From Candidatus Woesearchaeota archaeon (GTDB lineage: Archaea > Nanobdellota > Nanobdellia > Pacearchaeales > GW2011-AR1), in the NCBI GenBank assembly GCA_964358765.1, contig CAYHPN010000003.1, positions 43,327 through 107,326 on the forward strand: DNA of 64,000 bases. The letters are read 5' to 3'. Below are positions 6,748-64,000 of the stretch, one piece after another. The notes under the pieces are model-generated. The model made no database searches. It saw only the letters and a program-made list of their open reading frames with translations, and was not told where the DNA came from. The translations under genes were made by a program, and so were the position numbers. The first letter of the stretch is position 1. The number at the start of each line of letters is the position of its first letter.

Positions 6748-7281
6748 TTATTGAGCTTTCTGCCCAGTTAATTCCTCATATAAATCCAAATATCCTTTAG
6801 AAAACAATTTAACTTCTCCTGCAACCATCTCAAAACCAGAATTTCCATTGTTAAAAGAGGTTTCAATATATTTTTTATCTCTAAGCATCTTCACTCCTTC
6901 AACTTTAGTTGTTATAATTCTTATATCTTCGTTTGTTATACTTCCTTTTAGCACTTTGATGTTTTTATTAGATATTTCTGCGTTATAAATATCATTTTCT
7001 ATAATAAATTCTATTTTAGGAGTCTCTGAAGAGAATGGAGGGTTGTGCAAATTATATGCTTTAATACTTTGAAGTATATACAAAACAAAACCTTCATTAA
7101 ATTTTGCGACTGCTTGTTCATCGCTTAGTCCATCAACTGGATTAGATGGCTTACTTCCCACGTTTCTTCCAGTACTTTTATTTATAGACTTATTATAATA
7201 AGCAAATATTCCTCCAGCGATAATTAATAATATAAACAGAGATATTAGAATTATCAGAAATACTTTCCATCCTTTTTTCAT
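6748..7281 (-). CDS. N-terminally membrane-anchored hypothetical protein
   Basis: A single N-terminal TM (KVFLIILISLFILLIIAGGIFAYY) is followed by a soluble domain. Confidence 0.4.
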   Translation of the reverse strand: MKKGWKVFLIILISLFILLIIAGGIFAYYNKSINKSTGRNVGSKPSNPVDGLSDEQAVAKFNEGFVLYILQSIKAYNLHNPPFSSETPKIEFIIENDIYNAEISNKNIKVLKGSITNEDIRIITTKVEGVKMLRDKKYIETSFNNGNSGFEMVAGEVKLFSKGYLDLYEELTGQKAQ

Positions 7282-40230: not shown

Positions 40231-41133
40231 TTACTTATTTATTTTTTTCCCTAACTCCTTGCTTTTTTCTAAATAATTATTCTTAGTAACAACGTTTCTG
40301 CCTAATTCCTCTTCTGCTTTTTTTCTTGCAACCCCAGCTACCCCTCCGCCCCTCTTTGCAACATCTTTTATTTTGACAAAAATTTCAGGTTTCTCTTTTT
40401 GAGATATTTCAGTAGTAACTCTTTCTCCAAGCATTGTAAAAATTAATTCTAAATCATCCATGTGATCCCTTAAATTTATCTTTGATTTTTTAGGTAAATT
40501 CTTATAATTTTTATATTCACTTGGAGTAAGTCCAAAAGTTGCTTTGGATATTTCAGAAGTGAGAATTGCAAAATCTTTTTGTTTTCTTACACCCCTTTCC
40601 TTCCATTCATCAGTTAAATTCTGCCTTATTGCTATACCTCTTAATCTCTTATCGATCCAATCTTTAGAATACCCTTTTTTCTCATAAAGTTCTTTCATTC
40701 TTTCCTGAGCAATTTCAGGATTTTCAATCTCATCAATTCTATCTTTTCCAACTTTTGCAAGCCATAATTTGAAAGGTTCTGCCTTTGAAGAGGGTATTGA
40801 CTGGATAATTCTAAAAATATCTTTTATATTTCCTGCAATGAATTTTCTTTTAATATTTTTATCGGTTAACATCTCTACCTGGGGACATTTTGTCCCTATG
40901 TAGTTCCCAAGTTCCAAATCTCTTTTACGTAATTTTTTAAGATAATCTGTTGGATTTGAACTTTCAGTTAATACTTCGATAATATCAATTAAAGAATAAT
41001 ACCAATCTTCTTTAAACCATGTTCTTCTAATATTTTTATTTTGAAAAACAATTAGTTTATCCTGATCTTCATCCATGTTTATACTTAGTGGATTCTCAGT
41101 TAAAAGCTTTTTGTAATGAAGATAATCTAACAA
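40231..41133 (-). CDS. DNA damage-inducible protein D (DinD) family protein
   Basis: The C-terminal half KDFAILTSEISKATFGLTPSEY...INLRDHMDDLELIF...VAKRGGGVAG aligns with E. coli DinD (TDFAIFQNHGYQGLYGG...KILDHMGSTELAANLF...ELGG). Confidence 0.55.
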   Translation of the reverse strand: MLDYLHYKKLLTENPLSINMDEDQDKLIVFQNKNIRRTWFKEDWYYSLIDIIEVLTESSNPTDYLKKLRKRDLELGNYIGTKCPQVEMLTDKNIKRKFIAGNIKDIFRIIQSIPSSKAEPFKLWLAKVGKDRIDEIENPEIAQERMKELYEKKGYSKDWIDKRLRGIAIRQNLTDEWKERGVRKQKDFAILTSEISKATFGLTPSEYKNYKNLPKKSKINLRDHMDDLELIFTMLGERVTTEISQKEKPEIFVKIKDVAKRGGGVAGVARKKAEEELGRNVVTKNNYLEKSKELGKKINK

Positions 41134-41773
41134 ACTCTCCCGCTCTGCTTCCCAATATCTCCTTCAATTCTTCCTCTGTCGCATTAATAATTCCTCTCAA
41201 ACTCCCAAATTTCTCAAGTAACTTTTTAGCCTTTGCAGGCCCAACATTTGGAAATCCTTCTAAAATAAACTGCAATCTCTCCTCTTCGCTTAAAAATATC
41301 TTGCCCGCCCTTAAAGAATTATCTACTTTTTCTTTTCTAGCCAAAATGAAAATATGCATAGCAGTGTCTTTTTCATTTAGTGTATAAATTACAGGCACAT
41401 TATAATCCAGTGCAACACTCAGGAAAAATCCCCGCAGTGCATTCTCATGCATCCCTCCTTTATATCTTTCTTCTTTATCCCCTTCTATCATCAAAATACC
41501 CCTATCAAATTGTTTAAGTTCAAGCAGTTGGGTAAATATTCTCTTATCAATGATTGAACTCTTCAAATCATTTATAGTTTTTCTTTCAATTACAGCTCCC
41601 TTGACCATATAATCTCCAACTAAAAGTTGCTTAAATTCAACATCCATTCCTAATTTAACAAGCTCCGATGCAACAAGTGAATTCTTCTCTCTAAAATCAA
41701 TTTCAACCTTTACTTTTTCCTTTATTTCAACTTCTTCTCTTTTCTTCTTAGAAAATATATTCAATATTTCCAT
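41096..41773 (-). CDS. XPF/Hef-type ERCC4 nuclease with C-terminal (HhH)2 (short stand-alone form)
   Basis: ERCC4 motif LVGDYMV...GAVIERKTINDL...LMIEG, and the C-terminus EGFPNVGPAKAKKLLEKFGSLRGIINATEEEL. Confidence 0.75.
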   Translation of the reverse strand: MEILNIFSKKKREEVEIKEKVKVEIDFREKNSLVASELVKLGMDVEFKQLLVGDYMVKGAVIERKTINDLKSSIIDKRIFTQLLELKQFDRGILMIEGDKEERYKGGMHENALRGFFLSVALDYNVPVIYTLNEKDTAMHIFILARKEKVDNSLRAGKIFLSEEERLQFILEGFPNVGPAKAKKLLEKFGSLRGIINATEEELKEILGSRAGEFVRLSSLQKAFN

Positions 41774-42441: not shown

Positions 42442-44094
42442 TTACCTAAAATCATCTATCGTTCTAGTCTTCCTTATTTCTTTTAAGTCTTTCTTCACGT
42501 CCTCAATAGTCTTATGCATTTTATTTTCCCTTGCCTTGGATGCATAATGATGAGCTACATCCCGAGTATCCTTTGTAATCAGAATGATTAATTTTCCTGG
42601 AGCAAGTCTCGCAGTCCTCCCAGCTCTCTGAATACTTCTTATTGCAGAAGGAATCGGCTCATAAAATATTACTGCAGATACTTCAGGGATATCAAGTCCC
42701 TCTTCCCCAATCGAAGTGCAAACTAAAACATTTATCTTTCCCTCTCTAAAATCATCAACAATTGCTTTTTGTTCTTTTTGATTTAGTCCTGCAACTTTTC
42801 CTTCAGAGTTTAATTTCTTTGCTTGTCCGATAAAAATTGCAGACTTAATTTTATCAATTTTATTCATCCTTCGCGATATTTTCATTGCAGTCTCCCTAAA
42901 CTGTGTAAATATTATAACCTTAGAATCTTCTTTTTCCTTTATCTGCTGTTCGAGTATAACTGCAATTTCTTCAATTTTAGGATGTTCGACTTCATTCTTA
43001 ATCAAATCAGCAACAGAAATTAGTATTGCTCTAAATTCTTTCGAGTTTACCAAGGCTACAACTGCTTTTGATTTCTTCATTTCCGCTTGTTTCATTAAAT
43101 TAATTAAATATTCATTCAGTCCAGATATCGTTTGTGTTTCCAACAATTCCATAGCATGGGATATTTTAATAGCACTTGCAGTTAAAGACATCCCTCGCAG
43201 TGCATTAAAATCTCTCGAGTTCTGATATCTCATTGCTAAATTTCCTTGCAATTTTAATAAGGTAATCTTGTTAACAGGCCCAAATAATAATTTTTTTTCC
43301 TTTAGATCGTCCACATTTTTATCAAAAACCTTCTTAAGTAAATATTTTATTTCTTCAAATTCTTTTGGAAAAGGTACCATCACTTTATTAAAATCAAGCT
43401 CTTGCATATACCCTTTAACATCTTCAGACTCCCTAGTTCTTAGTTCAATTTCCTCTATATCCAAATGCTTGCAAATCTCTTTAACTTTATCAGTTTCATG
43501 TCCAGGAGAGGCAGTCAATCCCAAAATTCTCTGCATTTCAGACTGTCTCTTATAATAATCTACAACTTTAGTATAATCATAATTCTTAAGGCATCTATGC
43601 GCTTCATCTATTACAAGTAAAGAAACTTCTTTGAGATCATAAATTCCTTTTTCTAAATCATTTGCAATGCATTGCGGAGTAGAAAATATCATTTCAGCAG
43701 TCTGAAAAATCTCACTTCTTTTTCCTGCGTGTACTGATCCAGTAAACATCTCCATTTCCATAAATAATTCAGGCAATAATTTCTTAAAAGTTTCATAATG
43801 CTGTTCCACTAGAGGTCTAGTAGGTGCCAAAATTAATATCTTTGACAGGGGATATTTCTTCTTTCTTTCAATTGCAAGCATTAACGCAATAAGAGTTTTT
43901 CCTGTCCCTGTTGGCAAAACAACTAAAGTATTTTTATCTTTTGCAATTTCAAATATATTTTGCTGGTATTCTCTAGGTTTAATATCAATTTCAATATCTT
44001 TTAATTCTCTTTTCTCTTCTTTCTTTTTTGTGTATTCGCCCTCATTTAATGCAGTTTTATCAAATATATTATAAAAATTTCTCTTTTTTTCCAT
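42442..44094 (-). CDS. Hef/FANCM-type SF2 helicase (helicase module only)
   Basis: Motif I VVLPTGTGKTLIA, II VIDEAHR, III LGLTASPG, VI QRAGRTAR. It ends with a stop and does not continue into a nuclease domain. Confidence 0.75.
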   Translation of the reverse strand: MEKKRNFYNIFDKTALNEGEYTKKKEEKRELKDIEIDIKPREYQQNIFEIAKDKNTLVVLPTGTGKTLIALMLAIERKKKYPLSKILILAPTRPLVEQHYETFKKLLPELFMEMEMFTGSVHAGKRSEIFQTAEMIFSTPQCIANDLEKGIYDLKEVSLLVIDEAHRCLKNYDYTKVVDYYKRQSEMQRILGLTASPGHETDKVKEICKHLDIEEIELRTRESEDVKGYMQELDFNKVMVPFPKEFEEIKYLLKKVFDKNVDDLKEKKLLFGPVNKITLLKLQGNLAMRYQNSRDFNALRGMSLTASAIKISHAMELLETQTISGLNEYLINLMKQAEMKKSKAVVALVNSKEFRAILISVADLIKNEVEHPKIEEIAVILEQQIKEKEDSKVIIFTQFRETAMKISRRMNKIDKIKSAIFIGQAKKLNSEGKVAGLNQKEQKAIVDDFREGKINVLVCTSIGEEGLDIPEVSAVIFYEPIPSAIRSIQRAGRTARLAPGKLIILITKDTRDVAHHYASKARENKMHKTIEDVKKDLKEIRKTRTIDDFR

Positions 44095-44451
44095 TTAAAC
44101 TCATAAAAACTCTTATTTATAGAATTTTGTCTTTTTACAAATTAGTTCATTGGTTATTAATTATCTTAAAATTAGTATGCCTAGGTCACATTTCTTATAT
44201 TAATCATTTATTAATTAGTCCCTTGATTATTAATTATCTTAATATGTCAAGAAACCATTCATTAAATTATGATTTCTTATTTGGGTTTCTTGAGCATGTT
44301 CAAGAACTAAAATGAAAATGCAATTCACTTTAATACAAAGTTCTTGACATTATCCGATCTATGTCTTCCGCCTTTCTTATATTTATTATATCTTCCTTTG
44401 GCTTTCTTATCATTCTTCGTTCTTCTCCTATCTGGCATTTCGTAATCCATT

Positions 44452-44754
44452 TTATTTTCTCCTTTTACTCTTTTTAATTAATTTATCATTTATAATAGTC
44501 TTGTCCTTTTTTATATGTTTCCCAATATACGCCCCAAGGGAAGATAAAAAGAAAAATAATAACAAAGGTATCAAAGAATAATTATCATTTATATATGGTT
44601 TGTTTATTGCAACAATTATCAAAACAATCATGGAAACTGATCCAAGATATCCTCCAATAATGAGTCCTTTAAATGTATTAGGTAATGTCTTCCAAGTCCT
44701 TAGGTCTTCTCTTTTAAAGTTCATTTTATTAACCGTTGCAATTATAATCTTCAC
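44452..44754 (-). CDS. Small two-TM membrane protein, the last gene of the pilin-like operon
   Basis: 100 aa. Its start overlaps the upstream pilin-like gene. Confidence 0.35.
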   Translation of the reverse strand: MKIIIATVNKMNFKREDLRTWKTLPNTFKGLIIGGYLGSVSMIVLIIVAINKPYINDNYSLIPLLLFFFLSSLGAYIGKHIKKDKTIINDKLIKKSKRRK

Positions 44755-45064
44755 AACTTAATTGACAATTGATTTCTAATCTTGAATCATTGCATTTTAT
44801 CTTCCCATTGTCAATATCATACTCCTTACAACAAAAAGTGAGTTTATCGTTATTATCACAAGCAATCCCGCAAGCATTCTTTATTGCAGAGGATGTCGAG
44901 GTATCCACAAATGGTTTCGTTCCTTCCTTAAAACTCTTAAAACCTCCCAATAAGGCATATGCAATTCCAACCAATACGAGTATTCCAATCACTATTAATA
45001 TCAATGTTGAAATCGCCATTTCCATCCCTTTAGAATTTTTCATTTTAAGGTTCTTTAAACTCAA
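44729..45064 (-). CDS. Pilin-like protein (class III signal peptide) with a Cys-rich C-terminal domain
   Basis: NSKG-MEMAISTLILIVIGILVLV is a prepilin-type signal. Eight Cys residues follow. Confidence 0.55.
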   Translation of the reverse strand: MSLKNLKMKNSKGMEMAISTLILIVIGILVLVGIAYALLGGFKSFKEGTKPFVDTSTSSAIKNACGIACDNNDKLTFCCKEYDIDNGKIKCNDSRLEINCQLSCEDYNCNG

Positions 45065-45488
45065 GAATATCCGTACAGCTGCGACTGTTCACAATTGTTT
45101 TCTCTTTGTCCTTATCATCAAATTTTTGACATCTTTCACTTTCTCTTACTTCTTTACTTTCTCCGCAATCTAATTTGGTCTCAACTCCAACTAAAACTCT
45201 ATCATCCTCACAATTGACGTACTCAGTTTTTCCATTAACCTTAATCTTCTTAAAATCAGTACAATAAGATATTTTGTCGCTTGAGGCAACTGCCGTATTA
45301 CATGCAGCTGCAACAGTAGAAAGCGAATTACCACCTTGAAATATATTAATCTTCTCCCATAAATTGCTCCAGCCCATTGAAAATCCTAAAATCAATAACA
45401 CCAAAACTATAATTCCTAAAACAATTAATATTAAAGTACCTATAGAAAGATCCTGTCCTCTCTTATTAACCCTCTTCTCCATCACCAT
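45045..45488 (-). CDS. Pilin-like protein (class III signal peptide, KRGQ motif) with Cys-rich domain
   Basis: VNKRGQ-DLSIGTLILIVLGIIVLV matches the archaeal EppA/PibD-type prepilin signal with Q at +1. Confidence 0.6.
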   Translation of the reverse strand: MVMEKRVNKRGQDLSIGTLILIVLGIIVLVLLILGFSMGWSNLWEKINIFQGGNSLSTVAAACNTAVASSDKISYCTDFKKIKVNGKTEYVNCEDDRVLVGVETKLDCGESKEVRESERCQKFDDKDKEKTIVNSRSCTDILEFKEP

Positions 45489-45504
45489 TCTAAATTTTTT
45501 ATAT

Positions 45505-45972
45505 TTATAAACCTTTACCTAATTTTATAATTATTTCAAAATTCCTCTTTATTTTATTATTTCCTCTTTCTGCTTCAACAAATAAATCTTTAATAATAAT
45601 TTCTTTAATTCCTTCATTTTCGATAATTTCAAACTCTCCATTTCTTAGTTTAGCATATATGTTTCCAGCACCCTCGTACCTATATGTTTTTTCCTTTTCA
45701 TTGGATATTCTAATTATCCTTTGTTTTAATTCTTCATTATTACAACTGCCGCATTCATTGTAAGCCTCATCAAATATCAATCTTGTCTGCTCTTGTAGAT
45801 ATTCTTCATTAAAAATTACTTCATTCATCATCTCAGATAAGTTTTTTGAATCTGTATATAACGCTGAATTAAATGTTACCATCCCCCATAATGATACAAT
45901 AATTAAGGTTATTGTTGTAACTAACAATATTCCTGTTGCTACGTCTCCTTTTTTATTCATTATTATAAACAC
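45505..45972 (-). CDS. Pilin-like protein (class III signal peptide)
   Basis: MNKKG-DVATGILLVTTITLIIV. Confidence 0.5.
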   Translation of the reverse strand: MFIIMNKKGDVATGILLVTTITLIIVSLWGMVTFNSALYTDSKNLSEMMNEVIFNEEYLQEQTRLIFDEAYNECGSCNNEELKQRIIRISNEKEKTYRYEGAGNIYAKLRNGEFEIIENEGIKEIIIKDLFVEAERGNNKIKRNFEIIIKLGKGL

Positions 45973-46547
45973 GCTCCATAATAATATTGTATAAATACAT
46001 CTTGCAATTTATTATTTTTAACAATAATTTGGTTTAGATAACCGCCATTATGGTATTTCCCAGCAGATAACGGTCTACCCCCTAAACTCTCATCAATTAC
46101 TTCATCATAATTAAAATTCATAGATATATCATCTCTTGCTGATCCTCCAGTTCTTCCTGCCGGTTTCTCAGTATAACCTTTTGCTAAAATCAAGCAATGA
46201 CCTTTCTGAACTATTTTCATTAAAGATTTTGTTAGTGTTTCTCTATCAATTATTTCGTTTTCATACAAGACATAAGAATCTAACACAAACATCTCTTTTT
46301 CCTTTCCATCTATATTAATTTGGATTTTATTTAATAAAAGATCATTGCTTGCAGTAGAAATTGATTCTGGACTAACCATGGATGGTTTTTTTATTAATCC
46401 GCTTGCAGCAACAAACAAATACGCTCCTAAAATAAAAATGATAAATAGCAATACTGGTAAAAATACAATTCCTTTCCCCAGTTGTGCTTTTTTATGGATA
46501 ATTCTGTTGTTCAATATTAGTTTTTTAGAATTTTCCATATTTATCAT
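45963..46547 (-). CDS. Pilin-like protein (class III signal peptide)
   Basis: KKAQLGKG-IVFLPVLLFIIFILGAYLF. The N-terminus is a basic stretch, then G, then a hydrophobic helix. Confidence 0.45.
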   Translation of the reverse strand: MINMENSKKLILNNRIIHKKAQLGKGIVFLPVLLFIIFILGAYLFVAASGLIKKPSMVSPESISTASNDLLLNKIQINIDGKEKEMFVLDSYVLYENEIIDRETLTKSLMKIVQKGHCLILAKGYTEKPAGRTGGSARDDISMNFNYDEVIDESLGGRPLSAGKYHNGGYLNQIIVKNNKLQDVFIQYYYGACL

Positions 46548-47077
46548 GTGAGTTTCTCCCTGCTTAATTGATTGCTTCCAGTAGATATTATAAAGTTGTA
46601 TTCTCTTTCTTTTATTTTCATTTTTAAAGTAGAATCAACACACCTCATATATTTTGGATTTTTCTCTGACAAAGCACATTGCGCTTCATCTCCCTTTCCT
46701 AAATTTAGAATTTCATTTTTTTCATCCTTTATCTGTATAAACCATGAATTCCCAGTTGAATTAAAATTTATATTGCACTTAGAATAAAATTCTTCTTCTA
46801 AAACTTCTTTATTATTGTCCCAATTAACCTCTTGCGTTTTAATGCAATTTCTTGCATTCTTATTTAAAATTGCAGCATCTACTTCTCTAAATTCATAATT
46901 TTCAGAAAAAAATAAATAAGATCCTAAAATAATGCCCGCGGTTATAACAATAATAAGAAAAAAAAATGCAATTACCATGGTCATATTCCCTAGTTGTGCT
47001 CTTCTCGATTTAATATTTTTATTCATTTTCACTCCCGACCTCCATTTCCTTATCAATAACCTTAAACGACAATACAT
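46544..47077 (-). CDS. Pilin-like protein (class III signal peptide); the start is probably the internal Met at 47026
   Basis: MNKNIKSRRAQLG-NMTMVIAFFFLIIVITAG. Confidence 0.45.
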   Translation of the reverse strand: MYCRLRLLIRKWRSGVKMNKNIKSRRAQLGNMTMVIAFFFLIIVITAGIILGSYLFFSENYEFREVDAAILNKNARNCIKTQEVNWDNNKEVLEEEFYSKCNINFNSTGNSWFIQIKDEKNEILNLGKGDEAQCALSEKNPKYMRCVDSTLKMKIKEREYNFIISTGSNQLSREKLT

Positions 47078-47450
47078 TTATCGGATCTGCAAGCCTTAAT
47101 TCATCATTTACAATTGACACATCATTAAAATAAGAATAGCATTTTTTTCTTCCTTTTGACAATTTAACGCACACTTCGTTATTTACATTATCAAATTGAA
47201 AAATTTCTGAATAACTCCCTAGTGTTTGTTTTTGCGCAATTTCTGTGGCTTTATGTACATCTAAAACAACTTCATCTCCAGGTTTTGCCATATTTATTAC
47301 TTTAGTTATTTCTTTAGAATAATAATCCTCATAAAAAGAAGTCGCAAATTTGAAATTTCCTAAGAAATACATTGTCATAGAAAAAAATATAACTGCTAAA
47401 ACTATGTAAATCGCATTATCTAAAATTATATTCGTCCCTTTCTTATTCAT
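47019..47450 (-). CDS. Pilin-like protein (class III signal peptide)
   Basis: MNKKG-TNIILDNAIYIVLAVIFF. Confidence 0.5.
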   Translation of the reverse strand: MNKKGTNIILDNAIYIVLAVIFFSMTMYFLGNFKFATSFYEDYYSKEITKVINMAKPGDEVVLDVHKATEIAQKQTLGSYSEIFQFDNVNNEVCVKLSKGRKKCYSYFNDVSIVNDELRLADPINVLSFKVIDKEMEVGSENE

Positions 47451-48103
47451 TTTCTTATTTCATCCATATGGTCTAAATATTCGTTAGTATAATGTGTAAT
47501 AACTAATATTTTTTTACTGCCTTCCATTTTCTTAGTTATTTCTAATTCCAATAATTTATTTTTTTCAAAAGCCAAATAATCTAAATTTTGTTTATTGTAA
47601 TAACCAGTCCAAGACTCAAAATCACTAGTAGGTCTAGCAAAAGCCATATCTTTTGTAGCATGAGTTACATTGATAATTATTTCATCAAAATCTAATTTTT
47701 TGAATACTCCTTTTTCTTTGCAACTAGCTTCTTTATTTTCTCCATTTCCTTTGCAAATAGCAAGGCATAGCTGCTCAAAACATGCATCAGGCCTATTAAA
47801 ATTAGAAAAATTAAAACTGGTTAGAAACCATCCCTCTCCATTTACCGAATTTATTGTTTTCTTTACTGGGTTATTATCTTCAACATCGTTAATTCTTTGT
47901 TCAATTACATCTCCAAATCTTTTTGCACTATTAATTTCTCTGTCTTGTAAAAAATTAGTGTATATTTTTACACATGCAGCAAATAAAATAACTAAAATTA
48001 GCACGGCAATAACTAATTCTGTAGAGTTTTCCATCAAATTGCCACCTTTATCTTTTTTTTCTATTTTCATTTTAAAATATCCGACCTTAAGGATCTCCTT
48101 CAA
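47447..48103 (-). CDS. Pilin-like protein (class III signal peptide) with Cys-containing C-domain
   Basis: KKDKGG-NLMENSTELVIAVLILVILFA. Confidence 0.45.
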   Translation of the reverse strand: MKEILKVGYFKMKIEKKDKGGNLMENSTELVIAVLILVILFAACVKIYTNFLQDREINSAKRFGDVIEQRINDVEDNNPVKKTINSVNGEGWFLTSFNFSNFNRPDACFEQLCLAICKGNGENKEASCKEKGVFKKLDFDEIIINVTHATKDMAFARPTSDFESWTGYYNKQNLDYLAFEKNKLLELEITKKMEGSKKILVITHYTNEYLDHMDEIRK

Positions 48104-49133
48104 TGTAACTGCAAACCTTATTTATTGATTCCACTTCGTAAGGCAAAATTTGTACTGTTGAACACCCCTCAACTTCACTAGTCTCTTCATTTTGAAAATC
48201 ACTGCAATGATTAACAGCAGCTACTTTTCCTTGATAAACATTTGACATTGCATTTACAGTTGCACCAGCACCTATTACTCCGATAAATGCTAGTCCAGTT
48301 GAGGAAGTTGCAACTTTACCTACAAATGGCACCTGTGAAGCTGTTACTACAGAGGAAATTCCTAGTCCAGCTAAATTATTTAGTACATCCATATAACCTT
48401 TATTTTTAATCTGAGTAAATACTACCGCGTATTCTGTTAAGTCGTCGTCATTAAATTCCGTTTTTTTATTATAAATTCCTAATTTCCCTCCTATATCATC
48501 AGGTGTTTTTGCATATCCATTTACAGATCTATCTTTTGCAAAATATTGTAAATATGTCTCGCTTTTCCCTTCTATTTGTTTCGTTCCCAGATATTCCTCT
48601 ACATTAACTTTATTTTCATTTTTTTCCCCTTCAATATATTTCAAAAGAGTTTCATTATTTTTTGATTTTATTTTTACTCTGGAACAAATCATGCAAGTAA
48701 CATCTTGTTTTTCCTGCCCATATGTCTTTGCTAGTCCTCCATTGAATAAATCCATTTTCCCTTCTCCCATCATATTCCAGCAATTATACATTTCATCAGC
48801 CAATGTCTTTTCAATAGTTCTCTTATCACTTCCAATATCTCCAGATAATTGAATGGTTTTCTTTACGTTTTCCTCTCCTCTAAAATCTTCACAATCCTTT
48901 CCATCTGAAATACAAATTTTCTTAGTAGTGCATTTCAATGGTACATAGGCTGAAGTAGCCTGCGGTGAAGTTGCTCTTGTTAAAACAGAAAAAGCACATA
49001 CATCTTCATTTGTTTCCCCTCCTAAATTCAAGCCATTTAAAATAAAATATAATACTACTACAAATCCTGCAATAACTAAAACTGTAGTTATAACAAAACT
49101 AGAAGTCAATTCTCCTCTTTTGCCTTTTTCCAT
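48087..49133 (-). CDS. Large pilin-like protein (class III signal peptide, KRGE motif), first gene of the operon
   Basis: MEKGKRG-ELTSSFVITTVLVIAGFVVVLY, followed by a 300-aa Cys-containing domain. Confidence 0.55.
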   Translation of the reverse strand: MEKGKRGELTSSFVITTVLVIAGFVVVLYFILNGLNLGGETNEDVCAFSVLTRATSPQATSAYVPLKCTTKKICISDGKDCEDFRGEENVKKTIQLSGDIGSDKRTIEKTLADEMYNCWNMMGEGKMDLFNGGLAKTYGQEKQDVTCMICSRVKIKSKNNETLLKYIEGEKNENKVNVEEYLGTKQIEGKSETYLQYFAKDRSVNGYAKTPDDIGGKLGIYNKKTEFNDDDLTEYAVVFTQIKNKGYMDVLNNLAGLGISSVVTASQVPFVGKVATSSTGLAFIGVIGAGATVNAMSNVYQGKVAAVNHCSDFQNEETSEVEGCSTVQILPYEVESINKVCSYIEGDP

Positions 49134-49205
49134 ATAAAACTATAGAATTTTAGATTTATAACATTTTGCACAAATTATTATAAATGAAATTTTTTCTCCT
49201 TATCA

Positions 49206-50621
49206 ATGAAGTCTCTTAAAGAACATAGATATGATATCGAAAAGATAAAGAATAACATTAAAGCAAATAGAAAGGATAATAGAAAATTGCGGTTCGATCA
49301 TGGAAGCACCAACGCTACAAGGAAAAAAGTTACAGAAAAATACCATACTATTAACATTTCAAATTTAAACAAGATAATTGAGATCAATCCCAATAATAAA
49401 GAAATTACCCTTGAGCCAGGAGTAAAAATGTTTGAATTAGTTGAAGAATGTTTAAAATTCGGCCTTATTCCTCCAGTAGTTCCAGAATTTAAAGAAATCA
49501 CAGCAGGCGGAGCAATTTTAGGAGGGGCATTAGAAAGTTCTTCATTTAAGTTCGGTCAATTCGGTGATAGTTGTATTGAGTTAGACATAATCGATGGAGA
49601 TGGAAATTTGATTAAAACATCAAAGTCGAAAAACTCAGATTTATTTTATGGCATACAAGGGTCCTATGGAAGTTTAGGTTTGCTTACATTAATAAAATTA
49701 AAATTAATAGAAACAAAACCTTATGTAAAATTAGAAATTTGTACATGCACAGATTTGCAATCATCGTTAATGTTAATAAAAGAAAAAACATTCTCTAATT
49801 CCGACTTTATCGATGGCATAATATATAAAAATAAAATTGTAGTTTTGACTGGCACATTTTCACAAAATGCTCTTTCGTCGCTTGCATTCTCAAAAAGATT
49901 TGATGAATGGTTCTACAAGTATATTGATAAAAAATCAAATCTAACTAAAAATGAAATCGCCTATATTCCAATCAAAGAATACCTATTTAGATACGACCGC
50001 GGGGCATTTTGGATGGGAGATTATGCATTTAAAATCCTAAAAATGCCCTTGTTTAATTCTAGAATATGCAGAGGAGTATTCAATCATTACTTCACAACCA
50101 AAGAATTATACTCTGCATTACATCTTTCAAATTATTTTCAAGAATTTTTTATCCAAGACATTTATTTTCCTTTTGACAATGCAATCAATTATCTTAAATG
50201 GAATAAGAATAAATTAAATATCTATCCAATTTGGTTATGCCCAATAAAGGCTGTAAAAAATCCACAGAAACTTTCTCCCCATTATATCAAAGATACATTA
50301 TTATTAAATATAGGAATTTGGGGTCAATCTAAAGTTTTTCTTACAGATTACCTTTTGATCAATAAAAATATTGAAAAATTAGCCTCTCAAAATAAAGCAA
50401 GAAAAATGCTCTACTCACAACAATATTACACGCCCTCTGATTTCTGGAAAATCTACTCTAAAAAATGGTACGATAATCTAAGAAAAAAATATCATATGAC
50501 TATATTTCCAGATATTTATGAAAAAACATTTGTTTCTGAAAAATATAATCCTAATATATTCAAAGGTTTTCTCAATTATCATAAGTTAAAATTAAAGAAA
50601 TTCATTTCTAATTTTACATAG
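49206..50621 (+). CDS. FAD-binding (PCMH-type) oxidoreductase of the DHCR24/DIMINUTO family
   Basis: ITAGGAILGGALESSSFKFG...KNSDLFYGIQGSYGSLGLLTLIKLKLIETKPYVKL aligns with DHCR24 (VTVGGLI.G.GIE.SSHKYG...[35 protein letters not shown]). Confidence 0.55.
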   Translation: MKSLKEHRYDIEKIKNNIKANRKDNRKLRFDHGSTNATRKKVTEKYHTINISNLNKIIEINPNNKEITLEPGVKMFELVEECLKFGLIPPVVPEFKEITAGGAILGGALESSSFKFGQFGDSCIELDIIDGDGNLIKTSKSKNSDLFYGIQGSYGSLGLLTLIKLKLIETKPYVKLEICTCTDLQSSLMLIKEKTFSNSDFIDGIIYKNKIVVLTGTFSQNALSSLAFSKRFDEWFYKYIDKKSNLTKNEIAYIPIKEYLFRYDRGAFWMGDYAFKILKMPLFNSRICRGVFNHYFTTKELYSALHLSNYFQEFFIQDIYFPFDNAINYLKWNKNKLNIYPIWLCPIKAVKNPQKLSPHYIKDTLLLNIGIWGQSKVFLTDYLLINKNIEKLASQNKARKMLYSQQYYTPSDFWKIYSKKWYDNLRKKYHMTIFPDIYEKTFVSEKYNPNIFKGFLNYHKLKLKKFISNFT

Positions 50622-50645
50622 TAAACTTCTTAACTAATAAAATTT

Positions 50646-50742
50646 AATGCCCTGCGGGCAGTTCTATTATTGTAATTCATTCGGAAGTAAATTCCTCATG
50701 AATTCTATTTTGGCTAAATTTACTTTAGACAAAATAACTTCC
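50646..50742 (-). repeat. Partial, diverged copy (E) of the intergenic repeat element
   Basis: It shares aatgccctNcNggcag and attctattttggctaaatttactttagacaaaataact with copy C, and lacks the palindromic ccatgg module. It begins 25 nt after the oxidoreductase stop. Confidence 0.45.
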
Positions 50743-50945
50743 TTCTCATAAAGTTTTTATACTTTATATACTAAAATTTAATTGCTTTTCGTTTTGTCTT
50801 TGCAAAGTTTCAAAATATGAAGCATATATAATTTACATTGTAAATTTCTTAACTAATAAAGTTAAACCGTATATTGCTACACCAAGAAAAATTATCCATA
50901 ATAATATCTTAATCATAAACTCCATTTCAAATGCTTTTTTATTCA

Positions 50946-51809
50946 TTAATGCACCTCAACAGGACATTTATAATTTAGATCATTAGATTCAGTAGGTTTT
51001 GCTAAATCGACTTTTAATTTATCAGGTTTGTAAAAAATCACGCAATACCTTTTAGTTTCTCTCTCTTTTCCATCCTCTTGATATGTTAAAGAAATTGGTT
51101 CATCTGCCATTGACGATCTCCATTTCTGTGCAATGGCATTAAAAGTATTTATTAAGTCTCTATTACTTACCTTCTCATATTTATCTTCAGGAACAATTTT
51201 GTCTCCGTCTATAATTTTAGTCTTTAATATTTCTACTTGGCCATTAACTAAAACTTTTACAATCCCTCCTATAGCTTTAGAAACACAATCTTTAGAATCT
51301 TCTTTTACAAGTTTAATTATAACATCATTATTTTTATTAGGTTCTGTAGTAGAAATAAGAGGTACACATGCTTTAACATCGGGAATCTGTGGACACGCTG
51401 CACTTTTAGAACAAGGATCATATAACATTTCTATTGTCTTTGGGTGTAATGTTTCAAAGGATTCACTTTTTAATTTATTATTGTAAAACCAATCGTCTTC
51501 AAATTCCTTCTTCAAAAGTTTCTGATCTAAATTTTTCTTCCCAACTTTAGCCTCACCTTTTGCATTAAAATCATAAAAATTGTTCCCATCGTACCACTGA
51601 ACTTTTTTAGCAGTTAAATCATATCGTATAATTTCAATACCTTCTGCAAGAGGTTTAGTCATATTATATCCAGGAAGCAATATTTTTATTTTATCTATTA
51701 TAGTGTTGCCAAATATAAGTATAACGCCTAATGCAACTATAATTAATACAGTTACTGCCTTTCCTATATTTACTCCTTCATCTGCGGTTTGAGAGGCTTT
51801 TCTATTCAT
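50946..51809 (-). CDS. N-terminally anchored extracellular protein, possibly pilin-like
   Basis: ADEGVNIGKAVTVLIIVALGVILIFG is an N-terminal hydrophobic helix after a short polar leader. The start overlaps (ATGA) the stop of the mini-pilin ORF. Confidence 0.4.
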   Translation of the reverse strand: MNRKASQTADEGVNIGKAVTVLIIVALGVILIFGNTIIDKIKILLPGYNMTKPLAEGIEIIRYDLTAKKVQWYDGNNFYDFNAKGEAKVGKKNLDQKLLKKEFEDDWFYNNKLKSESFETLHPKTIEMLYDPCSKSAACPQIPDVKACVPLISTTEPNKNNDVIIKLVKEDSKDCVSKAIGGIVKVLVNGQVEILKTKIIDGDKIVPEDKYEKVSNRDLINTFNAIAQKWRSSMADEPISLTYQEDGKERETKRYCVIFYKPDKLKVDLAKPTESNDLNYKCPVEVH

Positions 51810-51973
51810 TTTCCAAATATCTTCAGATTTTTTAAAAATGCTGCCGCAGAGTTCATCTTCCCGCTAATAACTAAATATACTATCATTCCCAAAACCAGTA
51901 CTGCTATTCCAATGATCCATGGAATAAGATTATCCCAAACTAGTTGTCCTTTATTTCTTTTTTTTATGTTCAT
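51806..51973 (-). CDS. Unannotated 55-aa mini-pilin-like protein MNIKKRNKGQLVWDNLIPWIIGIAVLVLGMIVYLVISGKMNSAAAFLKNLKIFGK
   Basis: It is not in the ORF track (under 60 aa). A KRNKGQ class III signal motif is followed by a hydrophobic helix. Its TGA overlaps the ATG of 50946-51809 (ATGA). Confidence 0.45.
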   Translation of the reverse strand: MNIKKRNKGQLVWDNLIPWIIGIAVLVLGMIVYLVISGKMNSAAAFLKNLKIFGK

Positions 51974-52147
51974 CATTGTTTTATATAAATTTCATTTATG
52001 AATTTTAAATTATCCCAAACTAGCTGCCCCTTTCTCCCTACCCTTTTTTTCATAAATTAAAAAAGAATAAGGAGTATAAAAATACTTTGTAATTTTACTC
52101 TCTTAATCTAAAACGTACAATTTATAACATCTTTTTTCCTATATTAA

Positions 52148-54385
52148 TTGACAAAAAAGAGAATGGCAAACGAAAACTATAATCCGGATTATAATGGCCC
52201 TAGCTTTGGCTTTAACAATCAAGGAAATAACAATGCTTCTTCGATCATAAAAAAATATTCTCAAAAGTTAAATTCTCAGTTGAATTATAACTCTCAAAAT
52301 AATGCAGGCTATTCTAAAGAATATTCTCAGTTTAAAATTGAAATGGCTCCAGATCTTTCTAGATATGAAAAATGGGCAAAGTCTCTTGGCAATGTCCTCA
52401 ATCTAAAGATTGCAGAAAAAGACCGCATTAAAATGCAAAGGTATTTAGATATCGCTCATCTCGATGTTACTGCTTCTCAATCTCTAACCCTGGCAGTAAT
52501 GGCAACTTTTGCAGTATTTTTCGTAACAATTATGTTAGTTGTCGGAATTTATTTAATAAATGATAGTCTTCAACTTCTCTTAGGTTTTCTTGGAATCATT
52601 GCAAGTCTTTTTATCTTTTATTATACATATGGCATGCCTCAAAGGCTTTCAAATTCTTGGAGACTTTCTGCTTCCGCTCAAATGGTTCCTGCAATTTTGT
52701 ATGTTGTAGTTTATATGAAACATACTTCTAACCTAGAAAGAGCAATTCAGTTTGCTTCTCAGCATCTAGAAGGACCTTTAGCCTTAGACTTTAGAAAAAT
52801 ATTTTATGACGTTGAAATTGGAAAATTCTCAACAATCAAGCAATCTTTAGAGAATTATTTAGAAGAGTGGAGAGATTATTCCCCTGAATTTATAGAAAGT
52901 TTCCATTTGATTGAATCTTCCTTATTTGAACCAAGTGAGATTAGAAGAGTAGAAATATTAGAAAAATCATTGCAAGTTATTCTTGATGGCGTCTATGAAA
53001 AGATGCTGAAATACTCAAGAGAAATACGTTCTCCACTAACCAACCTTTATATGTTGGGAATTATTTTACCAACTCTTGGTTTAGCTCTTTTGCCCTTAGC
53101 TTCTACACTTTTAGCCGGAGCTTTCAAATGGCCCCATGTCATTATTTTATTTAATGTCATAATCCCTTTCTTTGTTTTTTATATGGTTTCAGAAGTTCTC
53201 TTAAAGCGTCCAGGAGGTTATGGTGAAACTTCTGCACTCCAGTTAAACCCAAATTATCAAAGTTATAAATCAAATAAACCTTACTTCAAAGCAGCTTTAA
53301 TTGCTTTCCCTATTTTATTAATTGGTTTGCTTCCCTTGTTGCTGCAAATAAATTATTCAGTTATAGGCCTAAATATTCCTCATGATTTTAAGATGGAAAA
53401 AATAGGTCTTGGATTTTTCGGAGATGTAAATGCTTTTGATTTTAAGCCAATTCCAGATGGTAATGGTAAAAGAATTGGACCCCTAGGCCCATTAGCCTTA
53501 GTTCTGAGCATGTTCATCCCATTATCTATTGCTGTATTTTTCTCATTTACATATTCTCAAAAAACTAAAAAATTAATAAGCACTAGAAAAGACACCAAAG
53601 TTTTAGAAACGGAATTTACTAATTCTCTCTTTCAATTAGGGAACAGATTAGGAGATGGTATTCCAGCTGAAATAGCTTTTGGTAGAGTTGCCGATTCTAC
53701 AACCGGGCAGAAAAGTTCTGAATTTTTCTTAGTAGTAAGTAAAAATATACAGCAAGGAGGCATGGATGTAGAAAACGCCGTATTTGATCAAAAAAGAGGA
53801 GCAATTACTTATTTCCCATCCGCTTTAATTGCCACCTCTATGAGAATTCTAGTAGAAAGCGTAAAAAAAGGTTTAACTGTTGCAGCACGATCATTAATGT
53901 CGATTTCAGAATATGTAAAAAACATAGAAAAAATTAATCAGCGTCTGCGTGATCTCTTAGCAGAAATAGTTTCCGATATGAAATCAAATATGACTTTCTT
54001 AGCACCTTTACTTGCAGGCATTGTTGTAGGTTTATCCGGAATGATAACATTTATACTTAACAAATTAGGAGAACTAAATTTAGGTGAAGGAAGTTCTCAG
54101 CTAGGCGGATTTGATATAAATACTCTTTCAAGTTTTCTGGATTCAACAAATATGATTCCTCCTTATTTTATACAAATTGCTATAGGGGTCTATATTATAG
54201 AAATTATCTTCATTTTAACTGGAGCTTTAATAACTGTTGATGCCGGGAAAGATCCTCTTAGGGAAAAATATGAATTAGCCAAAAACTTAAGAAGAGGTAT
54301 GTTCCTTTACCTAATTACGGCATTCATTTCAACTCTTGCTTTAAGCATACTAGCAGGTTTTGCACTATCAAATCTTGGGCAATGA
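52148..54385 (+). CDS. FlaJ/TadC-like polytopic membrane protein with two T2SSF-type domains (pilus/archaellum assembly platform)
   Basis: Two cytoplasmic helical domains separated by TM triplets: AIQFASQHLEGPLALDFRKIFYDVEIGKFSTIKQSLENYL and TEFTNSLFQLGNRLGDGIPAEIAFGRVADST resemble GspF/T2SSF repeats. It is 745 aa with about 9 TMs. Confidence 0.5.
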   Translation: MTKKRMANENYNPDYNGPSFGFNNQGNNNASSIIKKYSQKLNSQLNYNSQNNAGYSKEYSQFKIEMAPDLSRYEKWAKSLGNVLNLKIAEKDRIKMQRYLDIAHLDVTASQSLTLAVMATFAVFFVTIMLVVGIYLINDSLQLLLGFLGIIASLFIFYYTYGMPQRLSNSWRLSASAQMVPAILYVVVYMKHTSNLERAIQFASQHLEGPLALDFRKIFYDVEIGKFSTIKQSLENYLEEWRDYSPEFIESFHLIESSLFEPSEIRRVEILEKSLQVILDGVYEKMLKYSREIRSPLTNLYMLGIILPTLGLALLPLASTLLAGAFKWPHVIILFNVIIPFFVFYMVSEVLLKRPGGYGETSALQLNPNYQSYKSNKPYFKAALIAFPILLIGLLPLLLQINYSVIGLNIPHDFKMEKIGLGFFGDVNAFDFKPIPDGNGKRIGPLGPLALVLSMFIPLSIAVFFSFTYSQKTKKLISTRKDTKVLETEFTNSLFQLGNRLGDGIPAEIAFGRVADSTTGQKSSEFFLVVSKNIQQGGMDVENAVFDQKRGAITYFPSALIATSMRILVESVKKGLTVAARSLMSISEYVKNIEKINQRLRDLLAEIVSDMKSNMTFLAPLLAGIVVGLSGMITFILNKLGELNLGEGSSQLGGFDINTLSSFLDSTNMIPPYFIQIAIGVYIIEIIFILTGALITVDAGKDPLREKYELAKNLRRGMFLYLITAFISTLALSILAGFALSNLGQ

Positions 54386-54419
54386 AAAGCAATATATAAT
54401 CTATTTTTCTAATATTAAC

Positions 54420-55196
54420 ATGGCATTAAATTTTATTTCAGAAAATAAAGAAAAATATCTGGAAATTAAAGAAATAATTCCTCAAATAAAAATGATTTCT
54501 CTCCAGCTTCCAGAGATTCAGGAAATAGACCCAAAAGCCATAATAGAGGGAAAATTAAAGTTCGCTATGAAAAAACAAAAGGGTGAACTTTTCTGTGAAG
54601 ATACTTCTCTTTATATCAACTGTTTAAATGGTTTTCCAGGTCCTCTAATCAAGTGGATTCTCAAATCTCTCACCGATAAAGGATTAGCAGAATTAGTCTT
54701 AAAATAATGCCCTTCAGGCAGGGTGCAGATGCACATTTAGTAATTTAGTCAAAAGGCAAGTGTTGCCTAAATTCTTATTTTGGGCAAATTTACTTTGAAC
54801 AAAATAACTATATTTCCAATGGAAATTATTTTCGTTATAATTTACATTAGATTGAAATATAAAGATCATTCAGTAATTGCTAAAACAGTAATAGGATATA
54901 CTGATGGAAAAGAAATAAAATATTTCCAAGGTTCTATAGCTGGAAAGATTGTTTTACCTAAAGGAAATAACGGATTTGGCTGGGATAAAATATTCCTTCC
55001 ATTAAACTCAAATAAAACTTTTGGAGAAATGACTTCCTCTGAAAAGAATAAAATAAGTATGAGAAAAATAGCTGCACTAAACCTAAAAGATTATTTAAAT
55101 TCAACCGCCACTTCTTCTCAAGGTTATATAATTATTAATTATCAACCCTACAATCAAAACAGAAACAATATGTCCAGTAAATGCAGCAATAATTGA
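54420..55196 (+). pseudogene. Ham1/RdgB-family non-canonical NTP pyrophosphatase (ITPase) split by insertion of repeat copy C
   Basis: The N-terminal half (to 54707) MALNFISENKEKYLEIKEI...LFCEDTSLYINCLNGFPGPLIKW matches the Ham1 N-terminus. The C-terminal half (from about 54858) YKDHSVIAKTVIGY...GNNGFGWDKIFLP...KTFGEMTSSEKNKISMRKIA matches the Ham1 C-terminus (FKTVIGY..GYGFAYDSIFIP..TFAEMTTEEKSQISHRKKA). A stop-containing insert of about 150 nt separates them. Confidence 0.7.
54707..54859 (-). mobile_element. Repeat element copy C (MITE-like) inserted inside the ITPase gene, flanked by an AAATA (possibly TTRAAATA) direct duplication
   Basis: Its reverse complement carries the full 5' module taaattataacgaaaataatttccattggaaatatagttatttt and the 3' module aaattactaaatgtgcatctgcac-cctgcctgaagggcatt. 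Left junction cttaaaata|atgccc; right junction gattgaaata|taaagat. Confidence 0.7.
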
Positions 55197-62333: not shown

Positions 62334-64000
62334 TTATACATCCAGTTTAATAAATTTCTTTTCATCTTTCTTTCCTAGTTTTCCCACCTTTCCCACTTTC
62401 TTGTGATGCACATGTAAAAATCTGATTACAAAGAAAAGTAATGCCAATGAAAGAATAAAAATCAAGACAACACCTGATTTTTTACCTCCACCTCCAGATA
62501 TAGCTAAACCAGTTCCCCCAGTTGAAGAAGGCAAGAATATCTTCTTTTCCTTACTTATCAAAGAAAATCCATCCCCAAATTCAAATATTAAAACAAACTC
62601 TCCAAATGAATCTTTAGGCAATTTAAACTCAATATTTTCATTTCTATCTTCTTTTTTCAACAATTTTGTATTTGATTGTCCTTTATATCTTGTAATATTA
62701 TCTAAATCTCTCATCTCATAATTTATCAATATATCATGATCTTCTCCAGAATATTCTTTCAAATTATAGTTAACTTTCAAATTTCCTCCGTTTCTTTCAT
62801 ACTCTCCAATTTCTCCCTCAAAACTATTTCTATAAGCATTCACTATCATTGGAATACTATAGTTGCCCTCGTCGCATTCTATAATAACTTCGGAAAGATA
62901 TTCCCCAGGTTCTCCTTCATCAGGCACTTTGACTTCAATACTATAAACAAATTTTTCCCCTTCTCCTAATCCTTTCGTCTGTCCATTGCTTAGCCAGGAA
63001 CTTACCCCTCCATTAAATTTCAATTTGCACCCATTCAAAAACACATTTCCAGTGTTTATAATTTGTAAATTTGCTTTTCCGCTTGTGCCCTTTTTTAGAA
63101 TAATCTCATCTAAAAATTCCAAATTAAGTTTCACGAGTTGACTAGCATTTGCAGGTTTTAACACACCCGTACTTCCACCACCGCCACCTCCGCCACCTCC
63201 AGGAGTGCCTCCTGGCGTTCCTCCCCCTGTCGTTGAAACCGTAAAACTTGAATTTGTTGAATAAATATGTCCGACAGGATCTTCAACAAAAAAACTAAAA
63301 ACAAAATCAGCATCTAAAGTCACACTAAAGTTTGAACTCCCAGTAGCGCAATTAACTAAAGTATTGGGTATCTCAATATTGCTTCCCCTGTAAACTCTGT
63401 AATAGCACATAGTCGGACTAGTATCATTCACGCTGAATGAAATAGGCAAATTATTCCTTGTCGAATAGCTCCCTAAAGGAGAATTCAATGTAGCATTAGG
63501 AGAAATTGTATCTATATGAAAACTTTCATTCGATGTGATAGAAACATGTCCAAATGAGTCATTACAGCTGACACTCCAGATATAATCTCCGTCACTCAAA
63601 TTCAAAAAGAAACTATTCTCACTACCTGATGTAACCGAATTATCCGTTTGATTCAAAGAGAATATTCCATTGAAATTGCCCCATAATCCACAACTCCCCA
63701 AGTCTAAATCGCTGGCTTCATAAACGAATTCTAATTCCTCATTTTCCCCCAAATATTCCCCTACAGGAGAAACTAAAGATACCGTAGGGGCGCCAACCTG
63801 AATGCTGAAAGAGCTATTTGTCATCCCAAAATTTCCATAGCTATCATTTGCAAAAAGAAAAACAACATGACTGCCTTCACTGGTATTGAAAGTGGAATTT
63901 AGACACCCGGTTAAAGTCCGGTTTGCTCCATTATCAATATTATACCAGCAACTCTGTAGATTTGAGTCATTAACTGAGAAATTTAATGCTAAACTAACGT
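62334..64000 (-). CDS. Large surface (S-layer-like) protein with repeated Ig-like domains, a Gly/Thr/Pro linker and a C-terminal TM anchor; the 5' end lies beyond the window
   Basis: The reading frame stays open upstream of the track start (63824) to the window edge. It has repeated about 100-aa units rich in N-x-S/T sequons, GGTPGGTPGGGGGGGGGS, and the C-terminal TM VLIFILSLALLFFVIRFL plus a basic tail. Confidence 0.5.
   Translation of the reverse strand, partial: VSLALNFSVNDSNLQSCWYNIDNGANRTLTGCLNSTFNTSEGSHVVFLFANDSYGNFGMTNSSFSIQVGAPTVSLVSPVGEYLGENEELEFVYEASDLDLGSCGLWGNFNGIFSLNQTDNSVTSGSENSFFLNLSDGDYIWSVSCNDSFGHVSITSNESFHIDTISPNATLNSPLGSYSTRNNLPISFSVNDTSPTMCYYRVYRGSNIEIPNTLVNCATGSSNFSVTLDADFVFSFFVEDPVGHIYSTNSSFTVSTTGGGTPGGTPGGGGGGGGGSTGVLKPANASQLVKLNLEFLDEIILKKGTSGKANLQIINTGNVFLNGCKLKFNGGVSSWLSNGQTKGLGEGEKFVYSIEVKVPDEGEPGEYLSEVIIECDEGNYSIPMIVNAYRNSFEGEIGEYERNGGNLKVNYNLKEYSGEDHDILINYEMRDLDNITRYKGQSNTKLLKKEDRNENIEFKLPKDSFGEFVLIFEFGDGFSLISKEKKIFLPSSTGGTGLAISGGGGKKSGVVLIFILSLALLFFVIRFLHVHHKKVGKVGKLGKKDEKKFIKLDV

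Follow-up and report, generated by a model that had tools for sequence, protein, structure and literature searches.

A probable type IV filament locus of Pacearchaeota-type DPANN archaea with lineage-specific pilin-like and platform families

Described type IV filament systems and the locus in the window

The Epd pilus of Methanococcus maripaludis is encoded by an 11-gene unit, which includes a dedicated peptidase and, besides a headless major pilin, numerous minor pilins (Sivabalasarma & Albers 2026, bioRxiv 10.64898/2026.04.22.720090). Together with archaeal type IV filament system 1 (Makarova et al. 2016, PMC4858521), it is the closest described system to a gene cluster located at positions 44452 to 54385 of a 64-kb stretch of contig CAYHPN010000003.1 from Candidatus Woesearchaeota archaeon (hereafter the window, meaning the whole stretch analyzed). 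This window is AT-rich (GC about 30%) and archaeal, as it encodes Nre, FtsZ, and a split Hef, and its homologues are found in metagenome-assembled genomes (MAGs) of Pacearchaeota or Nanoarchaeota. Most probably, the cluster supplies the subunits and the membrane platform for an archaeal type IV filament (pilus) system that is conserved throughout the Pacearchaeota-type DPANN and confined to them. This reading is based on related loci, which carry pilins, platform, ATPase, and A24 peptidase in one locus.

Like the Epd pilus and system 1, the system consists of an operon-like cluster of about 11 genes with distinct minor pilins and a very short headless pilin, Q is often found at position +1 of the subunits, and the relatives of the locus contain an in-cluster peptidase and a TadA/FlaI-like ATPase. 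However, one gene for a 745-residue platform protein is found here, whereas two platform genes are present in Epd/system 1. Moreover, the platform and every pilin family lie below the detection of Pfam and NCBIfam, the heads are Cys-rich, and in the ATPase of the relatives, with about 757 residues, the T2SSE domain is preceded by a long N-terminal region. The locus is not filed under Epd/system 1 because of its one platform gene versus two, a separation made on gene content.

Resemblances also extend to other filaments. As in the bacterial Tad/Flp pilus, mini-pilins that comprise barely more than a hydrophobic helix stand alongside pseudopilin-like proteins, the best NCBIfam match of the ATPase is a TadA-family model, and some platform orthologues are labelled TadB in the JGI annotation. 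Unlike that pilus, the system has an archaeal host, no secretin or outer-membrane part, a single fused platform, and an ATPase whose score is far below the family cutoff. In Thermoproteales, almost all components of the type IV pili of subclades 4B, 4D, and 4E of Makarova 2016 contain multiple conserved cysteines and are expected to form disulfides (PMC4858521). The locus shares multi-Cys components with these pili and differs from them in lineage and gene content, as far as a comparison by description goes. The type IV pili of Saccharibacteria and other bacteria of the candidate phyla radiation (CPR) likewise belong to ultra-small, probably host-dependent cells in shared groundwater habitats, but their machinery is bacterial (PilB, PilC, PilD, and PilT), so that the likeness is one of lifestyle and not of ancestry. 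Pilin genes of cultivated Saccharibacteria have been targeted to test the predicted role of these pili in episymbiosis, in work outlined in PMC11623550.

FlaIJK-type annotation has led to regular reports of type IV pili in other DPANN genomes (PMC8561730). At least one groundwater study, by contrast, stated that DPANN genomes lack type IV pilus components and used pili to identify CPR cells (bioRxiv 10.1101/2020.05.14.094862). A literature search found no paper describing a Pacearchaeota locus of this type. An earlier, sequence-only reading of the same DNA had proposed that the Cys-rich pilin heads and the number of paralogues match no system known to be described; this view does not hold in the face of the 11-gene pilus cluster with its own peptidase in M. 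maripaludis and the multi-Cys pilus components of Thermoproteales.

Conservation of the filament machinery among related loci

A scan of species-representative genomes retrieved 248 relatives of the platform protein, all of them from MAGs of Pacearchaeota, 'Woesearchaeota', or Nanoarchaeota; 80 loci were fetched, and the locus counts given throughout refer to these 80. Pilin-like genes recur in conserved order beside the platform, with synteny in about 60 of the loci, and a T2SSE ATPase of about 757 residues adjoins the platform in 63, while an A24 prepilin peptidase is encoded at the end of the operon in 38. Platform, pilins, and peptidase occur together in 37 loci, each with 8–12 class III open reading frames (ORFs), and 36 of these also contain the ATPase; the layout is divergent as in the window in 32 of them and co-directional in the other 5. 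The window and all 80 loci have a single platform gene. In the closest contig (L001), one-to-one orthologues follow one another in equal order, with identities of 26–67% for the pilin-like proteins, and a Peptidase_A24 gene is located just beyond the pilin operon. The lack of an ATPase, noted for the window by the sequence-only reading, is not a trait of the system, as the relatives have ATPase and A24 peptidase in one locus with the pilins.

The ATPase of the relatives, identified by clustering P-loop ORFs, matches PF00437 (E 4.9e-12) with a T2SSE domain at residues 422–599, and contains the Walker A motif GTRSAGKTS and the Walker B motif VGEVRS. Its best NCBIfam match, to a TadA-family model, reaches 134 bits against a cutoff of 373, and FlaI reaches 120 against a cutoff of 550. 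The A24 peptidase, with about 281 residues, matches Peptidase_A24 (E 1.2e-12), conserves both aspartate motifs (QD and GGDAK), and has FlaK as a weak best NCBIfam match. Variants of the ATPase were also observed: some orthologues have about 1270 residues (L008, 12342–16145, and L074, 3361–7188; P0323 and P0324), and intein and LAGLIDADG domains (PF14890 and PF14528) are present in P0323 and P0324.

The ancestral gene order is RPA-like, EF-1beta, HIT, A24, pilin operon, platform, ATPase, F104, F246, three F174 membrane proteins, PRC-barrel protein, M50-like protein, Hef helicase, and ERCC4 nuclease. In about 50 loci (L006, L021, L023, and others; about 14.7–19 kb in L021), the ATPase is flanked by genes for a coiled-coil protein of about 104 residues, a protein of about 246 residues, and three tandem membrane proteins of about 175 residues. 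These F104, F246, and F174 proteins may be accessory parts of the machine, and their genes are absent from the window. Hef is encoded there by two genes, ERCC4 nuclease and helicase, at 41096–41773 and 42442–44094 on the minus strand. This Hef/ERCC4 pair directly follows the pilin operon in the window and lies beyond the ATPase block in the relatives, and downstream of its platform gene the window has Ham1 and an ion-channel gene. Therefore, the gene orders point to at least two rearrangements in the lineage, and we infer that ATPase and peptidase are encoded outside the window through rearrangement and have not been lost from the system. Genes identical to those of the window are found in ENA assemblies of Hainich well H43. 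One of these assemblies, ERZ1292640, also contains an ATPase (P0242) that is 81% identical to that of L006, the nearest species representative. P0242 lies on a low-coverage contig, similar in this to that of the window-identical genes, and no platform gene follows it; it would fit an unlinked ATPase of the genome from which the window derives.

The platform protein and the pilin-like subunits

The platform protein (52148–54385, plus strand; 745 residues) is a divergent member of the GspF/PilC/TadC/FlaJ (T2SSF) group, with about nine transmembrane segments arranged around two cytoplasmic helical domains according to hydropathy. It has thousands of homologues, the best 120 at 64–74% identity, and its family forms 1143 clusters at 50% identity in a representative library. 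PF00482 (T2SSF) is reached by 10 of 23 close and 16 of 50 diverse orthologues (best E 3.2e-10), always in the C-terminal half at about residues 466–597, and the window protein is 64–75% identical to the orthologues that pass. Sequence searches of the PDB with the protein alone or with a shallow profile gave no match; a profile built from a diverse platform set ranks the cytoplasmic domain of EpsF first among 177,635 PDB sequences, weakly (E 0.32). The AlphaFold model (pLDDT 68.5) shows local Foldseek matches to the cytoplasmic domains of EpsF, OutF, and PilC with a probability of 0.96–0.99 and a TM-score of 0.64–0.71, the position within the query not being reported. The earlier proposal of a FlaJ/TadC-like platform is thus supported by PF00482 in the orthologues, the EpsF profile match, the local fold matches, and the adjacency of the ATPase in the relatives. 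That the protein has two T2SSF-like domains is supported in part: the C-terminal half is tied to T2SSF via the orthologues, and the second domain is plausible from the pattern of helices, with a profile–profile comparison that is not significant.

The pilin-type genes are transcribed divergently from the neighboring platform gene and form two runs. Nine minus-strand genes overlap or abut one another from 49133 down to 44452, as first described, and all of these ORFs are present at their coordinates. Several of the longer overlaps are artifacts of ORFs extended to the first start codon, and they vanish with the likely true starts obtained by comparison with orthologues. Eight of the nine begin, as proposed, with a short basic leader followed by G or A and a hydrophobic helix of 20–25 residues, and the ninth (44452–44754), with its two hydrophobic segments, does not qualify as a pilin. 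The sequence-only reading had added a second pair of genes, for about ten in total. Both members of this pair have pilin-type N-termini, but the small one ends at 51976 and not at 51973, and the total is 11, as a gene at 50833–50946 that overlaps the stop of the neighboring 287-residue gene had been missed. An FAD_binding_4 oxidase gene on the opposite strand (49206–50621, plus) divides the 11 class III-type genes into the two runs. The genes on either side of it, encoding the 37- and 348-residue proteins, are adjacent in L001 and in those further related loci that were inspected for gene order.

As a control for chance, the 180 ORFs of the window that have 45 or more residues were scanned for a strict pattern of [KR][KR][GAS] plus hydrophobic helix; it occurs in 10 of them, 7 of which lie inside the pilin cluster. 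Over all families, the leader consensus is M-x(0-5)-[NK]-[KR]-[KR]-[G/A, rarely S]. At position +1, where Q, E, or T had been proposed, the families have Q (often), E, D, or one of the hydrophobic residues. Across dozens of species, the orthologues in each family retain both the class III motif and the hydrophobic helix. Far from the cluster, a 177-residue ORF at 6748–7281 (minus) starts with MKKG/WKVFLIILISLF (the slash marks the end of the leader, here and below) and has a class III-like or signal-anchor N-terminus.

Starting next to the platform, the first run of subunit genes, all on the minus strand like those of the second, encodes a 56-residue Flp-like mini-pilin without a globular head (51806–51976; KG/QLVWDNLIPWIIG; family in 48 related loci), a 287-residue protein (50946–51809; MNRKA/S; 35 loci), and a 37-residue mini-pilin (50833–50946; MNKKA/FEMEFMIKILLWIIF, that is, MNKKA/FEMEF; family at the equivalent position in 31 related loci). 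The two mini-pilins consist of little beyond the hydrophobic helix and resemble Flp or Epd-type major pilins. The second run begins with a 348-residue protein (48087–49133; KRG/ELTSS; 61 loci). It is followed by proteins of 218 residues (47447–48103, likely true start 48070, MKIEKKDKGG/NLME; 53 loci), 143 residues (47019–47450; MNKKG/TNIIL; 59 loci), 177 residues (46544–47077, likely start 47026, MNKNIKSRRA/QLG; 50 loci), 194 residues (45963–46547; HKKA/QLGKG, preceded by further residues; 22 loci), and 155 residues (45505–45972; MNKKG/DVATG; 35 loci). The run continues with a 147-residue pilin (45045–45488; NKRG/QDLSIGTLILIVLG; 52 loci) and its paralogue, a 111-residue pilin (44729–45064; SKG/MEMAISTLILIV; 41 loci).

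The pilin genes had been taken for a set of paralogues, which does not hold: only the 147- and 111-residue heads are detectably related (the 111-residue head against the 147-residue family, hhalign probability 96.6%, E 5.6e-10), while all other pairs remain at background and constitute separate families with one-to-one syntenic orthologues. By sequence comparison, the set is best described as ten distinct families, each conserved across species, and a recent expansion of paralogues is rejected, with a single related pair. Scans against Pfam (ten proteins) and NCBIfam returned nothing significant for the pilin-like proteins, and the 348-residue protein has no Pfam or PDB match even by profile. 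The Cys-rich domains noted at first sight are real in their counts, and the positions of the residues are conserved. The conserved cysteines come in even numbers, with 10 in the 348-residue protein, 8 in the 111-residue and 6 in the 147-residue pilin, 4 each in the 218- and 177-residue proteins, and 2 each in the 194- and 287-residue proteins. Such even counts are compatible with extracellular disulfides.

Conservation differs among the components. Platform and ATPase rank highest, followed by the 147- and 111-residue pilins, and the 287-, 218-, 194-, and 348-residue proteins rank lowest. Identity to the orthologues of L001 is 74% for the platform, 66–67% for the 147- and 111-residue pilins, and 26–37% for the 287-, 218-, and 194-residue proteins, of which the 287-residue protein, at 26%, is the most variable in sequence and length (246–464 residues in its family). 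The alignment of the 147-residue pilin shows hardly any variation at residues 12–50 (its N-terminal 39 residues) and a variable head, with six cysteines conserved to at least 90%. Its AlphaFold model (pLDDT 84.8) comprises a 32-residue helix (16–47), a flexible linker, and a small alpha/beta head without a fold or sequence match among the solved structures of the PDB. Because a near-invariant N-terminal helix with a variable head is expected of a core subunit, the 147-residue pilin is a candidate core or major subunit. The fast divergence of the 287-, 218-, 194-, and 348-residue proteins is the pattern that would be expected of exposed tip or adhesin subunits, and the 287-residue protein is a candidate for such a role.

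Several neighboring genes complete the picture. The operon ends with the small two-transmembrane-segment protein at 44452–44754 (minus), whose orthologues are found only in L001 and L006, the closest relatives. Directly after it, a very basic 41-residue peptide without a family match (44325–44450, minus; MDYxxPxxRKSKNDKKAKGRYNKYKKGG at its start) is conserved at this place in 39 related loci. Beyond the platform, the Ham1/ITPase gene (54360–55196, plus) is interrupted, and its Pfam-matching halves, 54360–54707 and about 54860–55196, are separated by about 150 nt with several stop codons. No Rfam family matches this insert, and its folding is just marginally better than that of shuffled sequences (z −2.3). 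The interruption could reflect a small insertion or an intron-like element, or the gene could be a pseudogene. At 62334–63824 (minus), a 496-residue ORF forms the C-terminal part of a 1549-residue protein (L087) that continues past the end of the window. Laminin_G_3 and Big-like domains suggest that this is a cell-surface protein, and on its domains it is another candidate adhesin.

Alternative readings, proposed mechanism, and significance

Several observations weigh against the assignment to a type IV filament system. Ordinary signal anchors likewise combine a basic leader with a hydrophobic helix, so that the class III assignment depends on context and conservation, and the pilin heads match no solved pilin fold in fold and profile searches of the PDB. 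The window platform protein lies below every Pfam threshold and has no NCBIfam match, its global Foldseek E-values are not significant, and the comparison of its N- and C-terminal halves by hhalign (E 0.07 and 0.15) does not confirm an N-terminal T2SSF repeat. As the sequence-only reading had noted, the 64-kb window contains no T2SSE assembly ATPase and no A24 prepilin peptidase: Pfam scans of the larger ORFs, tblastn, and family hidden Markov models run against the six-frame translation, even with filters off, were all negative. Moreover, P0242 is no more than a candidate for the ATPase of the genome that contains the window.

Other readings of the locus have to be considered in the light of these points. 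The core parts equal those of type II secretion and Com systems, and several distinct minor pilin-like proteins are present. The machine might hence act as a short pseudopilus or secretion piston, or as a DNA-uptake (competence-like) fiber through which a DPANN cell of reduced metabolism obtains nucleotides. Neither a retraction ATPase nor an adhesin domain was recognized in the scans, which would agree with such a role, and a study of CPR bacteria found type IV pilin-like genes together with competence genes and linked them to the uptake of extracellular DNA as well as to adherence (PMC9938205). However, the conserved neighborhood shows no recurrent ComEC, DprA, or nuclease genes, its recurrent members being housekeeping genes or unknowns, and two Flp-like mini-pilins together with a strongly conserved 147-residue pilin suit a true fiber, which leaves the pseudopilus or uptake role improbable. 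The archaellum is rejected: the ten pilin-like proteins scanned have no archaellin (PF01917) or other Pfam match, there is no FlaH, a second P-loop protein is absent from the families that recur around ATPase and platform among the relatives, and the ATPase is far below the FlaI cutoff.

It is considerably harder to see the class III proteins as ligand-binding or enzymatic proteins of a bindosome-like surface assembly instead of fiber subunits. Archaeal class III signals also serve substrate-binding proteins, as outlined in bioRxiv 10.64898/2026.04.22.720090, and most members of the set have sizeable globular domains that lack an assigned function. Nevertheless, no catalytic or substrate-binding domain was found in the scanned members or, by Pfam, in 35 orthologues of the 348-residue protein, the largest of the set; no ABC transporter is adjacent, and the mini-pilins are headless. 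On the same finding, signal-anchored enzymes, the alternative named by the sequence-only reading, are rejected. Finally, the operon could be a decaying remnant, non-functional after the loss of ATPase and peptidase. Consistent with decay are the absence of ATPase, peptidase, and the ATPase-side block (F104, F246, and the F174 triplet) from the window and the FAD-oxidase gene inside the cluster. Yet this is scarcely credible for 11 pilin genes and a platform that are intact and that keep the leader motif, the Cys positions, and full-length alignment with their orthologues, while a matching ATPase, unlinked to a platform gene, occurs in the ENA assembly with window-identical genes.

For the type IV filament system, then, the components and their linkage are observed, and cleavage, polymerization, and an adhesive or host-contact role are modeled on characterized systems. 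By analogy with these, the 11 precursors would insert into the membrane via their hydrophobic N-terminal helix, and the A24 aspartic prepilin peptidase would cut after the [KR][KR][G/A] leader. A hexameric T2SSE ATPase would dock on the cytoplasmic domains of the platform and drive the stepwise extraction of subunits into a helical fiber. The body of this fiber may be built from the most conserved subunits, either the Cys-rich pair of 147 and 111 residues or the Flp-like mini-pilin of 56 or 37 residues. The 287-, 348-, 218-, and 194-residue proteins may act as low-abundance priming or tip subunits that confer binding specificity and whose conserved cysteines could form disulfides. Adhesion to a surface or to a host cell would be the most likely function.

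The cluster is an under-annotated system of a known kind, in which the platform and the pilin families are lineage-specific. Pacearchaeota and their relatives are abundant but have not been cultivated, and they probably depend on hosts. The presence of a complete and strongly conserved pilus locus in 248 or more species-level genomes corrects the view of DPANN as organisms without type IV pili, and the platform and all pilins of the cluster escape standard annotation. These families can be used for annotation models, for the metatranscriptomic or proteomic search for the major pilin, and for tests of which fast-evolving subunits follow host range. The biology is otherwise as expected for a type IV filament system. 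More speculatively, the cluster together with F104, F246, and the three membrane proteins of about 175 residues might represent a separate, unclassified archaeal type IV filament subtype confined to Pacearchaeota-like DPANN. This is a tentative proposal with somewhat less than even chances, and the marks of such a subtype, equally tentative when taken jointly with it, would be a fused giant platform, head folds without a solved relative, and a set of fast-evolving tip subunits responsible for recognizing the host. If this separate subtype proves true, pili on ultra-small groundwater cells cannot separate CPR bacteria from DPANN (cf. bioRxiv 10.1101/2020.05.14.094862).

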